From an uncultured Methanosarcinales archaeon (GTDB lineage: Archaea > Nanobdellota > Nanobdellia > Woesearchaeales > JACPIF01), in the NCBI GenBank assembly GCA_964602245.1, contig CAZRPY010000001.1, positions 88,246 through 152,245 of the forward strand: 64,000 nt of DNA. The letters are read 5' to 3'. Positions 44,722 through 51,681 of the stretch are shown here, one piece after another (positions within the stretch are counted from its first letter, which is position 1; each line of letters begins with the position of its first letter). A model generated the notes under the pieces. It was not told where the DNA came from, ran no database searches, and was given only the letters and a program-made list of their open reading frames with translations. A program made the translations under genes and the position numbers.

Positions 44722-44841
44722 TCGTGGACGGTCATAGTGGCATGGTTCCACCTGATCCCATTCCGAACTCAGAAGTTAAACATGCCAACGTCTTGGATTG
44801 TACTGTACTTTAGTACGGGAAGTCCAAGAAGCTGTCCCACT
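44722..44841 (+). rRNA. 5S ribosomal RNA (archaeal type)
   Basis: ggtcatagtggc...ccgaactcagaagttaaac...ggattgtactgtactttagtacgggaag aligns to archaeal 5S. The terminal helix GUGGACGG pairs with CUGUCCCAC. Followed by T-runs. Confidence 0.85.
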
Positions 44842-44941
44842 TTATATTATAATAGATTAGATTTTTCTTTGTTTTTTGATTCTATTTGCACTCTTCGGCA
44901 TATTGCTATACCTAGAGTCCGCTTCTCATATATTTTAATGT

Positions 44942-45026
44942 GCACTAGCGGACCAATGGCATAGCCTCGTGTTCGAGGCTCGTAATGCTAATTATTATTC
45001 TTTCAATACTTTTTGCTTAATGCAAA
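44942..45026 (+). repeat. conserved structured element, copy A (gcact..gcggacc, hairpin gcatagcctcg-loop-cgaggctcgtaatgc, T-rich tract, ttgcttaatgcaa)
   Basis: Near-identical to 60431..60524 over about 90 nt in the same orientation; extended 11-bp bulged hairpin. Confidence 0.6.
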
Positions 45027-45050: not shown

Positions 45051-46151
45051 TCATAAATCTATCTCTACTTTGCCTTCTTTCTCATTGACATCCTTTATAA
45101 TCTTATGCCCTTTCAATTTCTCTTTAATCTCTTTCCAAGAATACTTTTGTCTGGCTTTTTTGAGTTCTGTAAGGATTTCTTGGATAAGTTGATAGTTGTT
45201 ATAGATAGCTTCTGCCCGGCTTCTTTCTAGCATTTCTTGTTCTTCAAGCTCTAATATTTTAGCTTGCTCTTGCTCAATTATTTTCCTTAGCTTATTGATT
45301 TCTTTTTCATACTTGCTAGATTTTTTAGAAACAGTTTGATAATATGTATCTATTGCTTCATTAAAACTGGGAAATTCTTTTTTAGGATAATCTTGATAGA
45401 GCTTTAAGTCTATAGGAACTACATCAATTGCTTCTTGATTATCTTTTGAGTAAATTATAAATGCCTTTATTTTTGAGTCTAGTAAGTTGCTTAGATTTTC
45501 AAAAAGCCTTTTAATTTCCTGGCCCGAAAGAGCTTTCTTGGTTTTATCTAGCCCACTTAAAAGACAGAGTTCTTCTGCATAAATGCCACTAAGACCAATT
45601 TCAATTGCCAAAGTCTTAACAATAGAATCTCTAGAGCTTTCTTTTACTATTTTATTGAATTGATTAAAATCCTCTGAAAATAGATTATAACTAGATTTTG
45701 GATAAATGTATTTAATTCCTTGTATTATTTGTCTGTCTTTAAAAGACTGATTTTCAAGGGCTTTAAGTATTATGCTGTCTTTATCGCATAAAATAACATT
45801 ACCTTTGCCAAACATTTCAAATATCAGATAATAGGTTTCCTTAGCTAGCTCGAGTTTTATTATTCTTTCAGAATCTATTTGAGAAATGCTCTTTAATCTT
45901 GCATTAGTCAGATATTTTCTTAGATATTGAGAGAAATTGCTGCCAGTAGCTTCTATTTTTTGTTTAGTAAAGCAGAAGTATTTTCCTAAGGATATTTTTA
46001 AAAGTTTCTTACCTTTAGAAGTAACATAAAATTCTAATAGCCATGTAGAATCTTGTTTGGATATCTTGTCTAATCTTGCGTTTACTAAAAGGGATAATTC
46101 TGAAAGCAAGAATTTGTAATCAAGAGAAGATAATTTGTCTTTCATTTTCAA
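45051..46151 (-). CDS. NFACT-N domain protein (Rqc2/FbpA homolog, apparently lacking NFACT-R)
   Basis: MKMKDKLSSLDYKFLLSELSLLVNARLDKI resembles the NFACT-N start; coiled-coil C-terminal region; 366 aa versus roughly 650 in typical archaeal homologs. Confidence 0.5.
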   Translation of the reverse strand: MKMKDKLSSLDYKFLLSELSLLVNARLDKISKQDSTWLLEFYVTSKGKKLLKISLGKYFCFTKQKIEATGSNFSQYLRKYLTNARLKSISQIDSERIIKLELAKETYYLIFEMFGKGNVILCDKDSIILKALENQSFKDRQIIQGIKYIYPKSSYNLFSEDFNQFNKIVKESSRDSIVKTLAIEIGLSGIYAEELCLLSGLDKTKKALSGQEIKRLFENLSNLLDSKIKAFIIYSKDNQEAIDVVPIDLKLYQDYPKKEFPSFNEAIDTYYQTVSKKSSKYEKEINKLRKIIEQEQAKILELEEQEMLERSRAEAIYNNYQLIQEILTELKKARQKYSWKEIKEKLKGHKIIKDVNEKEGKVEIDL

Positions 46152-46175: not shown

Positions 46176-47936
46176 TTATTTTACTGTTACACTTTTGGCA
46201 AGATTTCTTGGTTTGTCTGGATCTAGACCTTTTTCAACAGCTAGATAATAGGCGAGTATCTGTATGGGTATTATGCTTAAGATTGGATTAGCCATACCAT
46301 ATTCAGGAACTTTTATGAAATAATCGTATACCTCATTATTATTGCTATTAATTCCAATTATATAGCCACCTCTGGCTTTGACTTCCATTGCATTTGACAG
46401 GATTTCTTTTTTTGTATGTTCTGTTGATAAAACAATGACAGGAATTCCTTCTTCTATTAATGCTATTGTGCCATGTTTAAGCTCTCCTCCGGCAAAGCCT
46501 TCAGCATGAATATAGCTTACCTCTTTTATTTTTAATGCTCCTTCTAATGCACTTGGATAAGCCAGATCTCTGCCTATTAAGAATATGCTATGATGATTTT
46601 TAAGATTGTTTGCTAAATTCTTTAATTTCTGTTCATTTTCTTTTATAATTTTATTAACCTCCATAGAAGATTTTATGACTAACTTTTTTCCATCATTTAA
46701 CTTATTTACACAGCCATAAGCAAGCATAGTAAGTATTGCTAACTGAGCTGTATAACTTTTAGTGCTTAATACACATATCTCTGGACCACAGTTCATCATT
46801 ATATTCTCATCAGAGAGAAGAGTTAGAGTAGAGCCTACAACGTTTGTAATAGAAATGATTTTAACGCCTTTTGATTTTGCTGTTTGAACTGCTTCAAGCA
46901 GGTCTGCTGTTTCTCCTGACTGGGATACTGCTATCATTAGAGTTTTATTTGTAAGGAATTCCTCATAATTCTTGAACTCGGATGCTAAAACCACATTTAC
47001 ATGCTTTTTTGCAATATGAGAAAAGACATAAGATGCTGAGACACAAGCATGATAGCTTGTTCCACAGCCTACTAAAAATACTCCAAAAGCCTTTTTTATA
47101 GCATTAATAACTTTTTTAATAAGCTTAGGATCCTGCTGGACTGATTTTTTAATAGTAGAGCTTTGCTCTTCAATCTCTTTCATCATAAAATGCTTATAAT
47201 CACCTTTCTTTGACTGCTCAAAATCCCAGTGCATAAGGAATATCTTTTTCTTGACTGGCTTGCCCGTCTTGAAATTCAGGATTTCTATTTTTTCATTAAT
47301 AGATACCATTTCATTATCAGCAAGAAGCAATGATTTTTTAGTAGATTCTATAAAAGGGCTGAAATCAGATGTAATATAAATACCATCTTTGGCTAAGCCT
47401 AATACTAATGGTGAATTTAGCCTTGCCCCAAGGATAGTATCTGAGGTTTCTTCAACAGCAACTATTGAAAAGCTGCCCTTTAATTTTTTTAAAGTTTCAA
47501 GGAAGGCTGCCCTGACATTTTTTCCATTTTTCATGAAATATTCTATTAAGTTGGGGATAACTTCTGTGTCTGTTTCGCTAATAAATTTAAAGCCTTTTGA
47601 TTGCAGAAAATTTTTAAGCTCCTGATAATTCTCTATTATACCATTGTGCACAACTGCTATCCTGAAATTATTTGAAAAGTGCGGATGCGCATTTGCTTCA
47701 GTAACTTTGCCATGAGTTGCCCATCTTGTGTGACCTATTGCTAAATTTGATCTGCTGAGGTTAAGGTCTTTAATAGTAATATCCTCAATTTTGCCAACTT
47801 TCTTTATGTAGGTGAATTTACTGTTTTTAGAACAGATACCCCAGGAATCGTAGCCACGGTATTCTAATTTTTTAAGTCCTTCTAATACAATTTCTACAGC
47901 ATTTCTTTTTCCTTTATAGCCAATTATTCCACACAT
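46176..47936 (-). CDS. glmS: glutamine--fructose-6-phosphate aminotransferase
   Basis: MCGIIGY N-terminal nucleophile; two SIS domains; ends KPRNLAKSVTVK; 586 aa. Confidence 0.95.
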   Translation of the reverse strand: MCGIIGYKGKRNAVEIVLEGLKKLEYRGYDSWGICSKNSKFTYIKKVGKIEDITIKDLNLSRSNLAIGHTRWATHGKVTEANAHPHFSNNFRIAVVHNGIIENYQELKNFLQSKGFKFISETDTEVIPNLIEYFMKNGKNVRAAFLETLKKLKGSFSIVAVEETSDTILGARLNSPLVLGLAKDGIYITSDFSPFIESTKKSLLLADNEMVSINEKIEILNFKTGKPVKKKIFLMHWDFEQSKKGDYKHFMMKEIEEQSSTIKKSVQQDPKLIKKVINAIKKAFGVFLVGCGTSYHACVSASYVFSHIAKKHVNVVLASEFKNYEEFLTNKTLMIAVSQSGETADLLEAVQTAKSKGVKIISITNVVGSTLTLLSDENIMMNCGPEICVLSTKSYTAQLAILTMLAYGCVNKLNDGKKLVIKSSMEVNKIIKENEQKLKNLANNLKNHHSIFLIGRDLAYPSALEGALKIKEVSYIHAEGFAGGELKHGTIALIEEGIPVIVLSTEHTKKEILSNAMEVKARGGYIIGINSNNNEVYDYFIKVPEYGMANPILSIIPIQILAYYLAVEKGLDPDKPRNLAKSVTVK

Positions 47937-47973: not shown

Positions 47974-49158
47974 TCATAATATATCTGATTTAACAACTTC
48001 TCCAGGAGTTGTAATTTTATCTGGCCAGATTTTTCTGCCTGGATTTATAGAAGTATTAATGCCTAGCTTAACATTATCAGCTATAACAGCTCCAAATTTC
48101 TTTCTATTAGTATCAATTAATTCATCTTCATATAAGCTTTTAACATTTTCATTATCATGCCTTAAATCTGCAATAACTGTTCCTGCGCCTATGTTTACAT
48201 TTTCTCCAATTATACTTTCACCAATATAGGCAAAATGTTTCGAAGTAACATTATCCATAATAATAGAATTTTTAACTTCTGACAAGCCAATTCTGCAGTT
48301 ATTGCCTATAAATGTATAAGGTCTTATAAAACAGTTTGGACCTATTGTACAGTTATCTCCTATAACTACTGGACCTTCGATATAGCTTCCTGACTTGACA
48401 ATTGTGTTTCTTCCTATTATTACATTGCTTTTTATTGTGACATTTTTTTCTACCTTGCCATCAATATTTTCTCTTATGCTTTCCAGCAAGTTTTTATTTG
48501 CCTCTAAGAGGTGCCATGGATATCCTATAGGAATCCATTTATCTGCTCTAATTGCTTTTACTTGCTCTCTTTCTGCTAGAACATTAATAGCATCTGTTAT
48601 CTCATACTCACCTCTAGTAGATTGCTCAATATTTTCTAGGATAAGAAAGATTGAATCTGAGAGTAAATACATGCCAGTATTAACTTGATGTGATATAAAT
48701 TGTTCTGGCTTTTCCACAATTCTTTTTAGGACGCCTTTTTCCTCAACAATAACACCAAAATTTTCAGGCCATTCCATGTCATGGCACATTACTGCAGAAG
48801 CTTTATTTTTCATTAAGTCTTTGACATCCTGCTTAAAAAATAAATCATCTCCACCAAAAACAATAAAATTTCCTTTCAAATGCTCTTTTGCCTGCAATAA
48901 TGCATGGCCTGTGCCAAGCTGCTCTAATTGCTCTACATACCTTATTTTAACACCTGAGTGTTTCAGGCCTATAAGTTTTTGAATCATATCACCCTTATAG
49001 CCAATAATAATAATCATTTCGTCAAATAAATTACCAATTTGCTCAAGATTATGCTCAATAATTGTTTTATTTGCAACCTTAAGTAGAGGCTTAGGCCTTG
49101 TTAATGTTAAAGGATAACATCTCTTGCCTATTCCTGCTGCTAACATGACTGCTTTCAT
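47974..49158 (-). CDS. glmU: bifunctional sugar-1-phosphate nucleotidyltransferase / acetyltransferase (archaeal GlmU-like)
   Basis: MKAVMLAAGIGKRCYPLTLTRPKPL NTase motif plus C-terminal left-handed beta-helix hexapeptide repeats; 394 aa. Confidence 0.85.
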   Translation of the reverse strand: MKAVMLAAGIGKRCYPLTLTRPKPLLKVANKTIIEHNLEQIGNLFDEMIIIIGYKGDMIQKLIGLKHSGVKIRYVEQLEQLGTGHALLQAKEHLKGNFIVFGGDDLFFKQDVKDLMKNKASAVMCHDMEWPENFGVIVEEKGVLKRIVEKPEQFISHQVNTGMYLLSDSIFLILENIEQSTRGEYEITDAINVLAEREQVKAIRADKWIPIGYPWHLLEANKNLLESIRENIDGKVEKNVTIKSNVIIGRNTIVKSGSYIEGPVVIGDNCTIGPNCFIRPYTFIGNNCRIGLSEVKNSIIMDNVTSKHFAYIGESIIGENVNIGAGTVIADLRHDNENVKSLYEDELIDTNRKKFGAVIADNVKLGINTSINPGRKIWPDKITTPGEVVKSDIL

Positions 49159-49304
49159 TTTTTCTCCGCTTGCAAGGAAGAAGTTGGAACCGCATGCAAA
49201 GACTTACACACTGTGCATTGTATTAGTGTATCTTTATGAAAAATGTCATTTGTCTTAGTAAAGGTAGTTACTTTTTTGCATTGCTCGCAATATAGTTCCA
49301 ACAT
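49155..49304 (-). CDS. unannotated small zinc-ribbon protein (49 aa): MLELYCEQCKKVTTFTKTNDIFHKDTLIQCTVCKSLHAVPTSSLQAEKK
   Basis: ATG lies 2 nt after the glmM stop. Its TGA overlaps the glmU-like ATG (ATGA). CxxC-x20-CxxC. Below the ORF-track length cutoff. Confidence 0.45.
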   Translation of the reverse strand: MLELYCEQCKKVTTFTKTNDIFHKDTLIQCTVCKSLHAVPTSSLQAEKK

Positions 49305-49306
49305 AA

Positions 49307-50668
49307 TCACCCTAATACTGCTTTAATTTCTGTTGCAATAATATTTGCAATTTCTGCTATTTCCTTTTGGTGTTTGCCTTCAACCATAACTCTTGCTAGA
49401 TCTTCTGTTCCAGAGTACCTAACAAATACTCTCCCATTATTGTTAAGCCTTTTCTCTGCATTTTTAATCATTTTATAAACTTTTGGCATTTTTTCAAAAT
49501 CTCTTTTTTCTCTGACTTTAACATTTACTAAGACTTGTGGATACTTCTTAAAACTATATAATTCTGATAGCTTTTTGTTGGTCTTTTTCATGATACTTAA
49601 TACTTGCAGGCTAGCAATTATACCATCTCCTGTTGGATTATAATCTGCAAAAATTATATGTCCTGCTTGCTCACCACCAAGGTTAAGGGATTTCTCAAGA
49701 ATAGTGTCTATTACATACCTGTCACCTACTTTTGTCCTGATAAGCTTAATGCCATGCATTTTTAGTTCTTCTTCAATGCCTAAGTTACTCATAACTGTTG
49801 CAACTATAGTGTTTTCTTTTAGTTTTCCATTATTTTTCATGTCTATTGCACAAATTGCTAGTATATCATCGCCATCTATGAGCTTACCATTTTCATCGCA
49901 CATGACAACTCTGTCAGCATCTCCATCTAAGCCTATGCCTAAGTCTGCTTTATGCTTCTTAACAGCTGTAGAGAGATTATTGGCATATAAGGCACCACAG
50001 TTAAGGTTTATGTTAAGTCCATTAGGTTTATCATTTAAGACTATCGCATCTGCTCCCAGCTCTTTAAAGATGGTAGGAGCAACTGCATAGGCTGAGCCAT
50101 TTGCACAGTCTAACACTATTTTTAAGCCATACAGTTTGTTGCTAATAGAGCCTTTTGCAAGTTTAATATACCTGGCCCTTGCATCATCTATCCTATAGGC
50201 TTTTCCAAGCTCTTTTGCACTTACACCCTCTAAGTCATCAGAAAAGAGAAGCCTCTCAATTTCTAGCTCAATCTTATCCTTTATCTTAATACCCTCTTCT
50301 GAGAAAAACTTAATACCATTGTCTTCTGCTGGATTATGGGAGGCTGATATAACAATACCTGCATTAGCCTTAAGCTCTCTTGTCAAATAAGATATGGCTG
50401 GAGTAGGGATAGGGCCTACTAATAGCACATCAACACCCATAGAGCATATCCCAGAGGTTAAGGCTGTTTCTAGGATATAACCAGAGATTCTAGTATCTTT
50501 ACCTATAAGGATTTTAGCCCTATTATTAGCCTTATTAGGCTTTTTTTGCTTTGCTTTGGAAAATACCATAGCTACTGCTTTTCCAAGCTTTAAAGCCATT
50601 TCAGGGGTTATAGGATATTTATTAGCAACCCCCCTAATGCCATCTGTTCCAAATAACCTTTTCTCCAT
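49307..50668 (-). CDS. glmM: phosphoglucosamine mutase / phosphohexomutase
   Basis: GIVISASHNPAEDNGIKFF active-site Ser loop; 453 aa. Confidence 0.9.
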   Translation of the reverse strand: MEKRLFGTDGIRGVANKYPITPEMALKLGKAVAMVFSKAKQKKPNKANNRAKILIGKDTRISGYILETALTSGICSMGVDVLLVGPIPTPAISYLTRELKANAGIVISASHNPAEDNGIKFFSEEGIKIKDKIELEIERLLFSDDLEGVSAKELGKAYRIDDARARYIKLAKGSISNKLYGLKIVLDCANGSAYAVAPTIFKELGADAIVLNDKPNGLNINLNCGALYANNLSTAVKKHKADLGIGLDGDADRVVMCDENGKLIDGDDILAICAIDMKNNGKLKENTIVATVMSNLGIEEELKMHGIKLIRTKVGDRYVIDTILEKSLNLGGEQAGHIIFADYNPTGDGIIASLQVLSIMKKTNKKLSELYSFKKYPQVLVNVKVREKRDFEKMPKVYKMIKNAEKRLNNNGRVFVRYSGTEDLARVMVEGKHQKEIAEIANIIATEIKAVLG

Positions 50669-50757: not shown

Positions 50758-51681
50758 ATGTATATAGTTACTAAAACAAAGGACAAAGTAGAGTCTCTAG
50801 CTGCTAAAGAGCTTAACCATAGGCAAATAAAGGCTTTAACATCTGAGTTAGCTAATAAAATCCTTATTGAGCTAGCTAAAGAGCCATCATATCCAATGGC
50901 TTTGGCAAATAAGCTTAGTATGAATGAACAGAAGATTTATTATCATATTAGGAAGCTGGAAAGAGAAAGGATAATACAGGTTGTTAAGACAGATAGTGTT
51001 CATGGGGCTGTGGCTAATTTCTATGGTCTTGTTGAGCCTGCTTTTGTGGTGAAATATGCTGAGTTTCAAGAGGCGCAGAAAATAGGCATAGAGGAACAAA
51101 CATCATATACTATACTAGATCCGTTTATTGAGAATGGACAGTTGAATGCTGTTATAATAGTAGGAAGTCCTGATCCTCATGGGCCTGAAAAGGCAAGAAG
51201 CAGAGATGGTTATTATGGCATTGATTTTGCCCTTTTCTTAGGCTCTTTTCTTAATGGAGTAAGTAACCTTAATGTTAAGCTGGACACAGAAGCAAGAACT
51301 GAAGATTTACAGAAGAATATTATCCTTATTGGAGGACCAGTAGTTAATAGCATTACTGCTGCAGTCAATTTAAAGATGCCTATAAGGTTTAACAAGGAAG
51401 GTAACTGGGCAATATTTTCAACTATTTCTAATAAAGAATATCACTCTGATGAGGCTGGGGTTATAGTGAAGATGAAAAATCCCTTTAATAAAAAGAAATT
51501 TGTATTAATAATAGCTGGAAAGAGATATGCTGGAACTAAGGCTGTAATGATTGCTTTTATCAAGCATTTTAAGGAGATTGCAAAGGGTAATAAGTTTAAC
51601 GATAAAGTGTTTGCAAAGGTTATTGAAGGGATTGACCTTGACTCTGATGGGATTGTGGATGAGATTGAGGTATTAGAGTAG
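50758..51681 (+). CDS. winged helix-turn-helix domain protein with uncharacterised C-terminal domain
   Basis: N-terminal ArsR/MarR-like wHTH (KILIELAKEPSYPMALANKLSMNEQKIYYHIRKLERERII); 307 aa. Confidence 0.45.
   Translation: MYIVTKTKDKVESLAAKELNHRQIKALTSELANKILIELAKEPSYPMALANKLSMNEQKIYYHIRKLERERIIQVVKTDSVHGAVANFYGLVEPAFVVKYAEFQEAQKIGIEEQTSYTILDPFIENGQLNAVIIVGSPDPHGPEKARSRDGYYGIDFALFLGSFLNGVSNLNVKLDTEARTEDLQKNIILIGGPVVNSITAAVNLKMPIRFNKEGNWAIFSTISNKEYHSDEAGVIVKMKNPFNKKKFVLIIAGKRYAGTKAVMIAFIKHFKEIAKGNKFNDKVFAKVIEGIDLDSDGIVDEIEVLE

Follow-up and report, generated by a model that had tools for sequence, protein, structure and literature searches.

Small proteins acting on metabolic enzymes have been described in archaea. 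In Methanosarcina mazei the small protein sP26 binds and tunes glutamine synthetase (10.1101/2020.05.06.080432), and the 49-residue MtrR acts with the Mtr complex (PMC13370731). A zinc-ribbon DUF35 protein is built into the archaeal thiolase/HMG-CoA synthase (HMGS/ACAT) complex (PMC12960953; Voegeli 2018 cited therein). Here we analyze a small open reading frame (ORF) located between glmM and a glmU-like gene, which belong to UDP-N-acetylglucosamine (UDP-GlcNAc) synthesis, a core pathway. It lies in a stretch of archaeal DNA of 64,000 nucleotides (contig CAZRPY010000001.1 of assembly GCA_964602245.1, positions 88,246 to 152,245), hereafter the window. From its sequence in five lineages we conclude that this ORF is a genuine protein-coding gene under purifying selection, and its 49-residue product is predicted to fold as a zinc ribbon.

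Sequence and position of the small ORF

The ORF was proposed in an initial annotation of the window, and the sequence and the list of ORFs agree on it. Read from the minus strand (49304..49155), it starts with ATG TTG GAA CTA TAT TGC, ends with AAA AAA TGA and encodes MLELYCEQCKKVTTFTKTNDIFHKDTLIQCTVCKSLHAVPTSSLQAEKK (49 aa); its ATG is at 49304-49302 and its TGA at 49157-49155. The initial annotation was also right on its surroundings: the ORF begins 2 nt past the stop of glmM (TGA, 49309-49307), its own stop overlaps the start of the glmU-like gene (ATG, 49158-49156) as ATGA, and the profile matches of the two neighbors, TIGR01455 (593.5 bits) and TIGR03992 (477.9 bits), identify them as glmM and glmU-like. 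The proposed CxxC-x20-CxxC layout is read directly from the sequence: C6-x2-C9-x20-C30-x2-C33, i.e. two knuckles, CEQC and CTVC.

Three start codons are in frame (Table 1). The GTG (49310-49308) overlaps the glmM TGA and gives the 51-aa ORF of the ORF list, while in the alignment the four orthologues described below have their start codon at the TTG (49301-49299).

Conservation and selection

Among GlmU homologues a tight group of four proteins (P0001-P0004) is 87, 79, 78 and 74% identical to the window GlmU, and the next ones are at most 58% identical. At the glmM/glmU junction the contigs of all four hold an intact ORF, 47-50 codons long (Table 1; loci are given L numbers and proteins P numbers). 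Sixteen residues are invariant in the five lineages: E3, Y5, C6, C9, K10, K11, T13, F15, T18, F22, D25, C30, C33, L36, H37 and A38. They include all four cysteines and the L-H-A motif.

For codon-aligned pairs of the five lineages, identity at codon positions 1, 2 and 3 is 0.57-0.76, 0.74-0.88 and 0.32-0.52 respectively. The nonsynonymous divergence (dN) is 0.22-0.43 while the synonymous divergence (dS) is saturated in 9/10 pairs; the sole pair that allowed an estimate gives a dN/dS ratio (omega) of 0.12. The codon periodicity check suggested by the initial annotation is thus positive, with position identity in the order 2>1>>3 and dN far under dS. The flanking glmM, glmU and glmS have omega values of 0.06-0.11 and dN values of 0.07-0.29. 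Compared with these enzymes the small protein changes roughly two- to threefold faster, yet it is clearly constrained. For a shuffled sequence of the same composition, the probability (P) of lacking a stop over 47-50 codons is 0.013-0.042 per lineage. As the frame is open in five lineages despite saturated synonymous sites, its presence is not due to chance.

The description of the ORF as unannotated is only partly correct. For one orthologue there is a database entry, hypothetical protein HYV81_03665, and another is called in a Logan assembly. Gene callers found the ORF in L001 and L007, i.e. in only 2/5 lineages; it went uncalled in L003-L006 and L008. The glmU call of L009 starts 16 codons too far upstream, across the small ORF, which makes it 410 aa long (P0004, 579-1811).

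Coupling with glmM and glmU

The tight coupling to both neighbors, noted at first for the window, is kept in every relative owning the small ORF. From the glmM stop to the start of the small ORF the geometry ranges, over the five lineages, from a 1-nt overlap (TAATG in L007 and L009) to a 5-nt gap. A GGTG is present 3-5 nt upstream of this start in 5/5 lineages; we take it to be a Shine-Dalgarno (SD) motif pairing with the 3' end of the 16S rRNA, whose gene is outside the window. At the other junction the SD-like motif of glmU is embedded in the small ORF (Table 1), and GAGGAG, AGGTGA, GGGTGA or GGGTGG occupies the same place in the orthologues. This embedded motif probably accounts for part of the variable Lys/Glu/Gly-rich C-terminal tail of the small protein.

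The TATA-like box upstream of glmM (Table 1) suggests that glmM heads the transcript of the glmM/small ORF/glmU unit. Bacterial-type promoter and terminator scans remained at background, this type of model not being relevant to an archaeon.

Predicted fold and family membership

AlphaFold2 was run with alignments of two and three sequences. Both runs led to the same model, with mean predicted local distance difference test scores of 77.0 and 80.7. The predicted strands span residues 2-6, 11-22, 25-30 and 36-40, and the tail (41-49) is of low confidence. In the model C6/C9 lie between the first two strands and C30/C33 between the last two, so as to form two hairpin knuckles. In each run no more than two or three models out of five were confident, and the model is thus supportive, not decisive. 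Both models display the features expected of a zinc ribbon, i.e. two CxxC knuckles at beta-hairpin turns providing four ligands, and the cysteines are invariant in the five lineages. The predicted fold is that of a classical four-stranded zinc ribbon, from which we infer zinc binding.

Searches in reference collections assign the protein to no family. Foldseek against the PDB gave no significant neighbor (best E = 0.36; SH3 domains and zinc ribbons such as ELOF1, Rpb9 and eL42), and the PDB sequence profile search nothing under E = 0.35. NCBIfam gave 0 families, and Pfam sub-threshold matches to generic zinc ribbons only (zf-DNL, Zn_ribbon_4, zf-C2HCIx2C and CPxCG_zf).

The top Pfam match of the window protein is zf-DNL (PF05180; 16.7-16.8 bits, E ~0.007, for a gathering score of 27). 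This match is sub-threshold in 4/5 members, which ties it for the most members matched. As in zf-DNL proteins (Hep1-Zim17), the layout is CxxC-x(~20)-CxxC and a His is found four residues past the last Cys. The small protein differs by the absence, past the second knuckle, of the D-N-L motif after which the family is named; it has KSLHAVP after C33. Proteins of the zf-DNL family, which is essentially eukaryotic-organellar, are escort chaperones of a partner protein. No DNL-finger protein was among the matches of profile A1 in the PDB. The regulatory or chaperone-like subunit suggested by the initial annotation is plausible, the sub-threshold zf-DNL match being its sole hint.

The CPxCG_zf family (PF19769) is archaeal and its N-terminal knuckle, MEIYC[DE]xCK, is nearly identical to that of the small protein. 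The rest is different: the family, represented by 185-aa Archaeoglobaceae proteins (L012-L014), spans 183 positions with a large C-terminal domain missing from the small protein, and its gene context is another one. The knuckles of the small protein are CEQC and CTVC instead of CPxCG, and its best match to PF19769 has E = 0.037, in 2/5 members, and remains under the cut-off of 27.2 bits. The three Archaeoglobaceae proteins, pre-selected by the same knuckle pattern in the scan of species genomes, were rejected as relatives; the similarity is limited to the first knuckle (~28 residues, a 5-residue gap, 22.8 bits). With its very narrow distribution, the small protein adds a new member to a familiar kind, the archaeal zinc-ribbon micro-proteins.

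Distribution and origin

The initial annotation proposed to look for the ORF at the equivalent junction in relatives. It is present in all four other lineages with a GlmU at least 74% identical to that of the window, but missing at 6/6 outgroup loci, with GlmU 55-58% identical. On the basis of these loci we conclude that the small ORF is a clade-specific insertion, not an ancestral or general part of the pathway. In L016/L017 and L021 the two genes adjoin directly, with 1 nt between glmM and glmU or a 4-nt overlap; upstream of glmU, L015 and L018 have the helix-turn-helix (HTH) gene or glmS; in L022 the glm genes are scattered. The junction has taken up another, different insertion in L023, where an inositol-monophosphatase-family gene (1728-2501, 257 aa), tightly coupled, lies exactly between glmM and glmU.

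A word-indexed homologue search with the 49-aa peptide gave no match. Exhaustive phmmer on 1.84 billion cluster representatives gave one true match, P0121, the L007 orthologue (E = 1.1e-10), recorded as 'hypothetical protein HYV81_03665 [Candidatus Woesearchaeota archaeon]'; the second match, P0122, was discarded as a repetitive artefact. Profile A1 searched against 5.8 billion proteins retrieved P0123 (L001) and P0121 only. Pattern scans found two true loci in 185,579 species genomes, one locus in JGI metagenomes (same species as L003) and none in viral contigs. An hmmsearch run on all six-frame fragments of the window and of the outgroup loci detected no paralogue, with nothing else under E = 0.04. 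An exact look-up of the window GlmU gave no record and neither collection scan returned the locus of the window itself, so that its genome appears to be missing from the collections covered.

An origin by fission of a fused protein was considered and rejected. In eleven longer GlmU homologues (408-444 aa) the N-terminus carries no Cys-rich extension, and the small protein is therefore not a split-off domain. The 410-aa P0004 is not a fusion either, its length resulting from the over-extended start codon.

Sequence similarities place the owners of the small ORF in one narrow Woesearchaeota-like DPANN group. The window GlmU is closest to proteins of metagenome-assembled genomes named Candidatus Woesearchaeota. 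One contig of the clade (L004/L010; GCA_964491335.1, CAZBGH010000032.1) is titled 'uncultured Methanosarcinales archaeon'. Its locus is collinear with the window and its glmM, glmU and glmS are 76-83% identical to those of the window; the other close relatives are named Woesearchaeota. This bin is probably mislabelled or contaminated.

Changes in GlmU of the clade

The closest solved relative of the window GlmU is ST0452 (2ggo_A, E = 2.9e-75). Four changes, T12K, L124M, D314E and N331D, are common to the five clade GlmUs; the columns concerned are conserved to 90% or more among 86 outgroup sequences. T12K falls within the nucleotide-binding motif G-x-G-T-R. The alignment with ST0452 is one-to-one over residues 300-393, position 331 corresponding to its Asn331. 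This residue is reported to matter only for the galactosamine-1-phosphate acetyltransferase activity (Zhang 2015, as summarized in PMC4909775). Judging from these substitutions, a changed substrate preference of the clade GlmU is possible. The clade GlmUs deviate at 5-9 of 94 conserved columns versus 3 (median) and at most 7 in the outgroups; the weak co-occurrence of the GlmU changes with the small ORF is therefore a lead, not evidence.

Neighboring genes

The features of the locus are collected in Table 1. The spacer between glmU and glmS holds TATA-like repeats of its own. The window GlmM is of the bacterial type: its TIGR01455 score is well above the cut-off of 447.55, and that for the archaeal TIGR03990 (344.5) is under the cut-off of 439. 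This type suggests, at the level of sequence, a horizontal acquisition or a DPANN-specific lineage.

The divergent gene adjoining the glm genes encodes a protein of ~307 aa with HTH and S_layer_C (PF05124) domains. It is also found next to the glm genes in L003 (1449-2378), L007 (1525-2448), L015 (2027-2947) and L018 (138-1070), i.e. both in the clade and in outgroups without the small ORF. It is a candidate transcriptional regulator of the glm operon. In the outgroup L015 a CofD/YvcK-family gene (PF01933, 6037-7023) lies directly 3' of glmS. YvcK/GlmR regulates GlmS in Bacillus, and the L015 gene may represent another regulatory addition to this pathway, a non-homologous one.

The NFACT protein is N-terminal-only and matches the NFACT_N model (456 positions) from position 8 to 364; its short form is shared by L003 (368 aa) and L007 (364 aa). 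An abortive-infection phage resistance gene (AIPR, PF10592; L006/L007 7168-8892) stands between glmS and the NFACT gene, but solely in the L007 lineage. The Rfam gathering scan of the window gave a lone 5S rRNA gene only, with no other rRNA and no tRNA in the 64 kb; the ORF listed over it is spurious. The window has a G+C content of 32.7%, and its archaeal markers are an MBF1-like HTH protein, the NFACT_N protein and the HTH/S_layer_C protein.

Table 1. Features of the glm locus in the window, and orthologues of the small protein
Feature	Position or locus	Strand	Description	Basis
Small (predicted) zinc-ribbon protein gene	49155..49304	-	49 codons + TGA; CxxC-x20-CxxC	sequence, orthologues, purifying selection, AlphaFold model
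Start region	49299..49310	-	three in-frame candidate starts: GTG, ATG, TTG	sequence, ORF list, alignment
ATGA	49155..49158	-	stop/start overlap of small ORF and glmU	invariant in 5/5 lineages
GGGTGA	49307..49312	-	last Gly codon and stop of glmM; includes SD-like GGTG; just 5' of small ORF start	junction table
GGAG	49164..49167	-	SD-like motif for glmU, within last codons of small ORF	
TATA-like box, cttatatataa	50689..50699	-	21-31 nt upstream of glmM ATG; putative archaeal promoter	sequence only
glmM	49307..50668	-	phosphoglucosamine mutase, 453 aa; first gene of unit, upstream partner	TIGR01455 593.5 bits; four PGM_PMM domains
glmU-like	47974..49158	-	archaeal bifunctional sugar-1-phosphate nucleotidylyltransferase/acetyltransferase (ST0452-type), 394 aa; downstream partner	TIGR03992 477.9 bits
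glmS	46176..47936	-	glutamine--fructose-6-phosphate transaminase; downstream of glmU past 37-nt AT-rich spacer	
HTH/S_layer_C gene	50758..51681	+	divergent; candidate regulator	PF05124
NFACT gene	45051..46151	-	366 aa	NFACT_N
5S rRNA gene	44724..44840	+		79.4 bits
75-aa ORF	44737..44964		listed over 5S rRNA gene; spurious	
Orthologue	L001/L002		MEMYCEQCKKVTNFAKTKDSFYRDAIVQCTVCNSLHAVPINSLPPKEEKK	
Orthologue	L003/4/5/10/20		(L)EMYCEQCKKHTNFVKTNNIFYKDAIVECTVCKSLHAIPISAVQADQVKK	
Orthologue	L006/7/8/11		MEIYCENCKKNTEFTRTKDMFQKDAIMECTACKALHAVSVNKTLGETK	
Orthologue	L009		MELYCDTCKKKTTFSKTNHVFKKDILMECSACKSLHAVSINTKLGGQ	

Discussion

Four points constrain the role of the small protein: its peptide sequence matters, not its mere translation; it would be produced in step with GlmM and GlmU; its predicted fold is a bare zinc ribbon, of modest net charge; and the pathway runs without it in sister lineages. 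We propose, with a confidence just short of even, that it is a zinc-ribbon accessory protein, made with GlmM and GlmU and binding one of them. The gene would have been inserted at the glmM/glmU junction in the ancestor of a narrow Woesearchaeota-like clade and then kept by purifying selection. Carried by the same mRNA as glmM and glmU, its translation would coincide in time and place with that of both enzymes. Zn2+ held by the four cysteines would stiffen a small beta-sheet, and the protein would dock onto GlmU or, less probably, GlmM through E3, K10, K11, T13, T18, D25 and H37, which are conserved at its surface. Once docked, the protein would be a non-catalytic accessory subunit that stabilizes, assembles or tunes the enzyme. 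The net charge (+1 to +4), the conserved polar/basic surface and the lack of a match to a nucleic-acid-binding family are in favor of such an accessory role. The conservation, the selection, the coupling geometry and the predicted fold also speak for it; sP26, MtrR and the DUF35 protein serve as precedents, and the GlmU changes of the clade add a weak hint.

Several points weigh against it. The clade is so close (GlmU 74-87% identical) that synteny would persist by inheritance alone, and gene position is therefore weak functional evidence. The outgroups run the same pathway without the small ORF, so catalysis does not depend on it. Binding of nucleic acids is another known property of zinc ribbons, and the small protein is Lys-rich (7-8 K+R). 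Five lineages are too few to measure co-evolution.

The small protein could instead be a functionally unrelated, lineage-specific micro-protein lodged and expressed in a permissive junction, with its target elsewhere in the cell. Such a role is unlikely in our view. In its favor, the junction accepts other insertions, as shown by the inositol-monophosphatase-family gene of L023, archaeal one-domain zinc-finger micro-proteins are numerous and have pleiotropic roles (PMC6562870), and the clade lacks the depth needed to prove linkage from synteny. But both junctions and the exact ATGA are kept in five lineages despite saturated synonymous sites, and no second copy or other context appeared in any database searched.

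Binding of the operon mRNA or DNA, or of another RNA, with an effect on expression and no contact with the enzymes, is about as unlikely. Zinc ribbons are common RNA- and DNA-binding modules, K10 and K11 are invariant among 7-8 basic residues with a positive net charge, and the weak neighbors include ribosomal and transcription zinc ribbons (L33, eL42, ELOF1, Rpb9 and aIF2-beta), all non-significant. This charge is nevertheless low (+4 at most), no nucleic-acid-binding family is matched significantly, the Rfam scan detects no conserved RNA element in the region, and the divergent HTH gene is a more obvious candidate regulator.

A more specific version of the accessory role is a zinc ribbon dedicated to the UDP-amino-sugar machinery as its third component. 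It would tether the bacterial-type GlmM to the archaeal GlmU trimer for direct handover of glucosamine-1-phosphate, or re-tune GlmU, which in this clade is altered at otherwise near-invariant residues, N331D among them. We regard this version as improbable. If true, it would be the first small-protein subunit described for the UDP-amino-sugar pathway.

It is very improbable that the peptide is irrelevant, the ORF being either untranslated or a translated spacer along which ribosomes move on from glmM to glmU. The glmU SD-like motif in its 3' end, the variable C-terminal tail and the direct glmM-glmU coupling of outgroups would fit a spacer. They do not account for the codon-position pattern with dN far below dS, for 16 invariant residues with four cysteines at fixed spacing, a zinc site not being expected in a spacer, or for a confidently predicted fold.

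Finally, a carrier whose C-terminal residue would covalently bear an amino-group intermediate, here an amino sugar, can practically be dismissed: the size of ~50 aa, the zinc ribbon with a flexible tail and the biosynthetic operon for an amino compound recall LysW (PMC12998189), but the LysW substrate sits on a C-terminal Glu (E53 in T. kodakarensis, PMC12998189), whereas the tails of the small proteins are variable (...AEKK, ...EEKK, ...QVKK, ...GETK and ...LGGQ), without a conserved acidic C-terminus, and the operon has no cognate LysX-type ATP-grasp ligase.

Full-text literature searches brought up no small or zinc-ribbon protein as a partner of archaeal GlmU or GlmM. As DPANN genomes are reduced, a gained small gene retained under purifying selection in an operon likely earns its keep. 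If the accessory protein does bind GlmU or GlmM, it would extend the short list of archaeal micro-proteins tuning central enzymes and offer a simple three-gene system for reconstitution in E. coli. If it binds neither, it is one more lineage-specific zinc-ribbon micro-protein.

Comparison with known systems

The C(P)XCG one-domain zinc-finger set of Haloferax volcanii (PMC6562870) resembles the small protein in general features: less than 70 aa, one four-Cys site, no other domain, an archaeal host and frequent lack of annotation. The knuckles of the small protein are however CEQC and CTVC, and no sequence relationship is detectable. The small protein is also distinguished by its embedding and translational coupling in a metabolic operon, and by its restriction to a single Woesearchaeota-like clade.

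Like sP26 and MtrR, archaeal proteins of 23-49 aa that bind and modulate a metabolic enzyme (10.1101/2020.05.06.080432; PMC13370731), the small protein would act on an enzyme of metabolism. In contrast to it, they are encoded elsewhere than between the genes of their targets, and they share no homology with it. We know of no zinc site in sP26 or MtrR.

DUF35 differs in architecture: it has ~130 aa and an oligonucleotide/oligosaccharide-binding (OB) fold besides its rubredoxin-like ribbon, while the small protein is a ribbon alone. The 49 residues leave no room for an OB fold, and no DUF35 Pfam match was obtained. As a non-catalytic zinc-ribbon protein encoded with two consecutive enzymes of a pathway (PMC12960953), the DUF35 scaffold would nonetheless be the best functional analogy for a protein bridging GlmM and GlmU.

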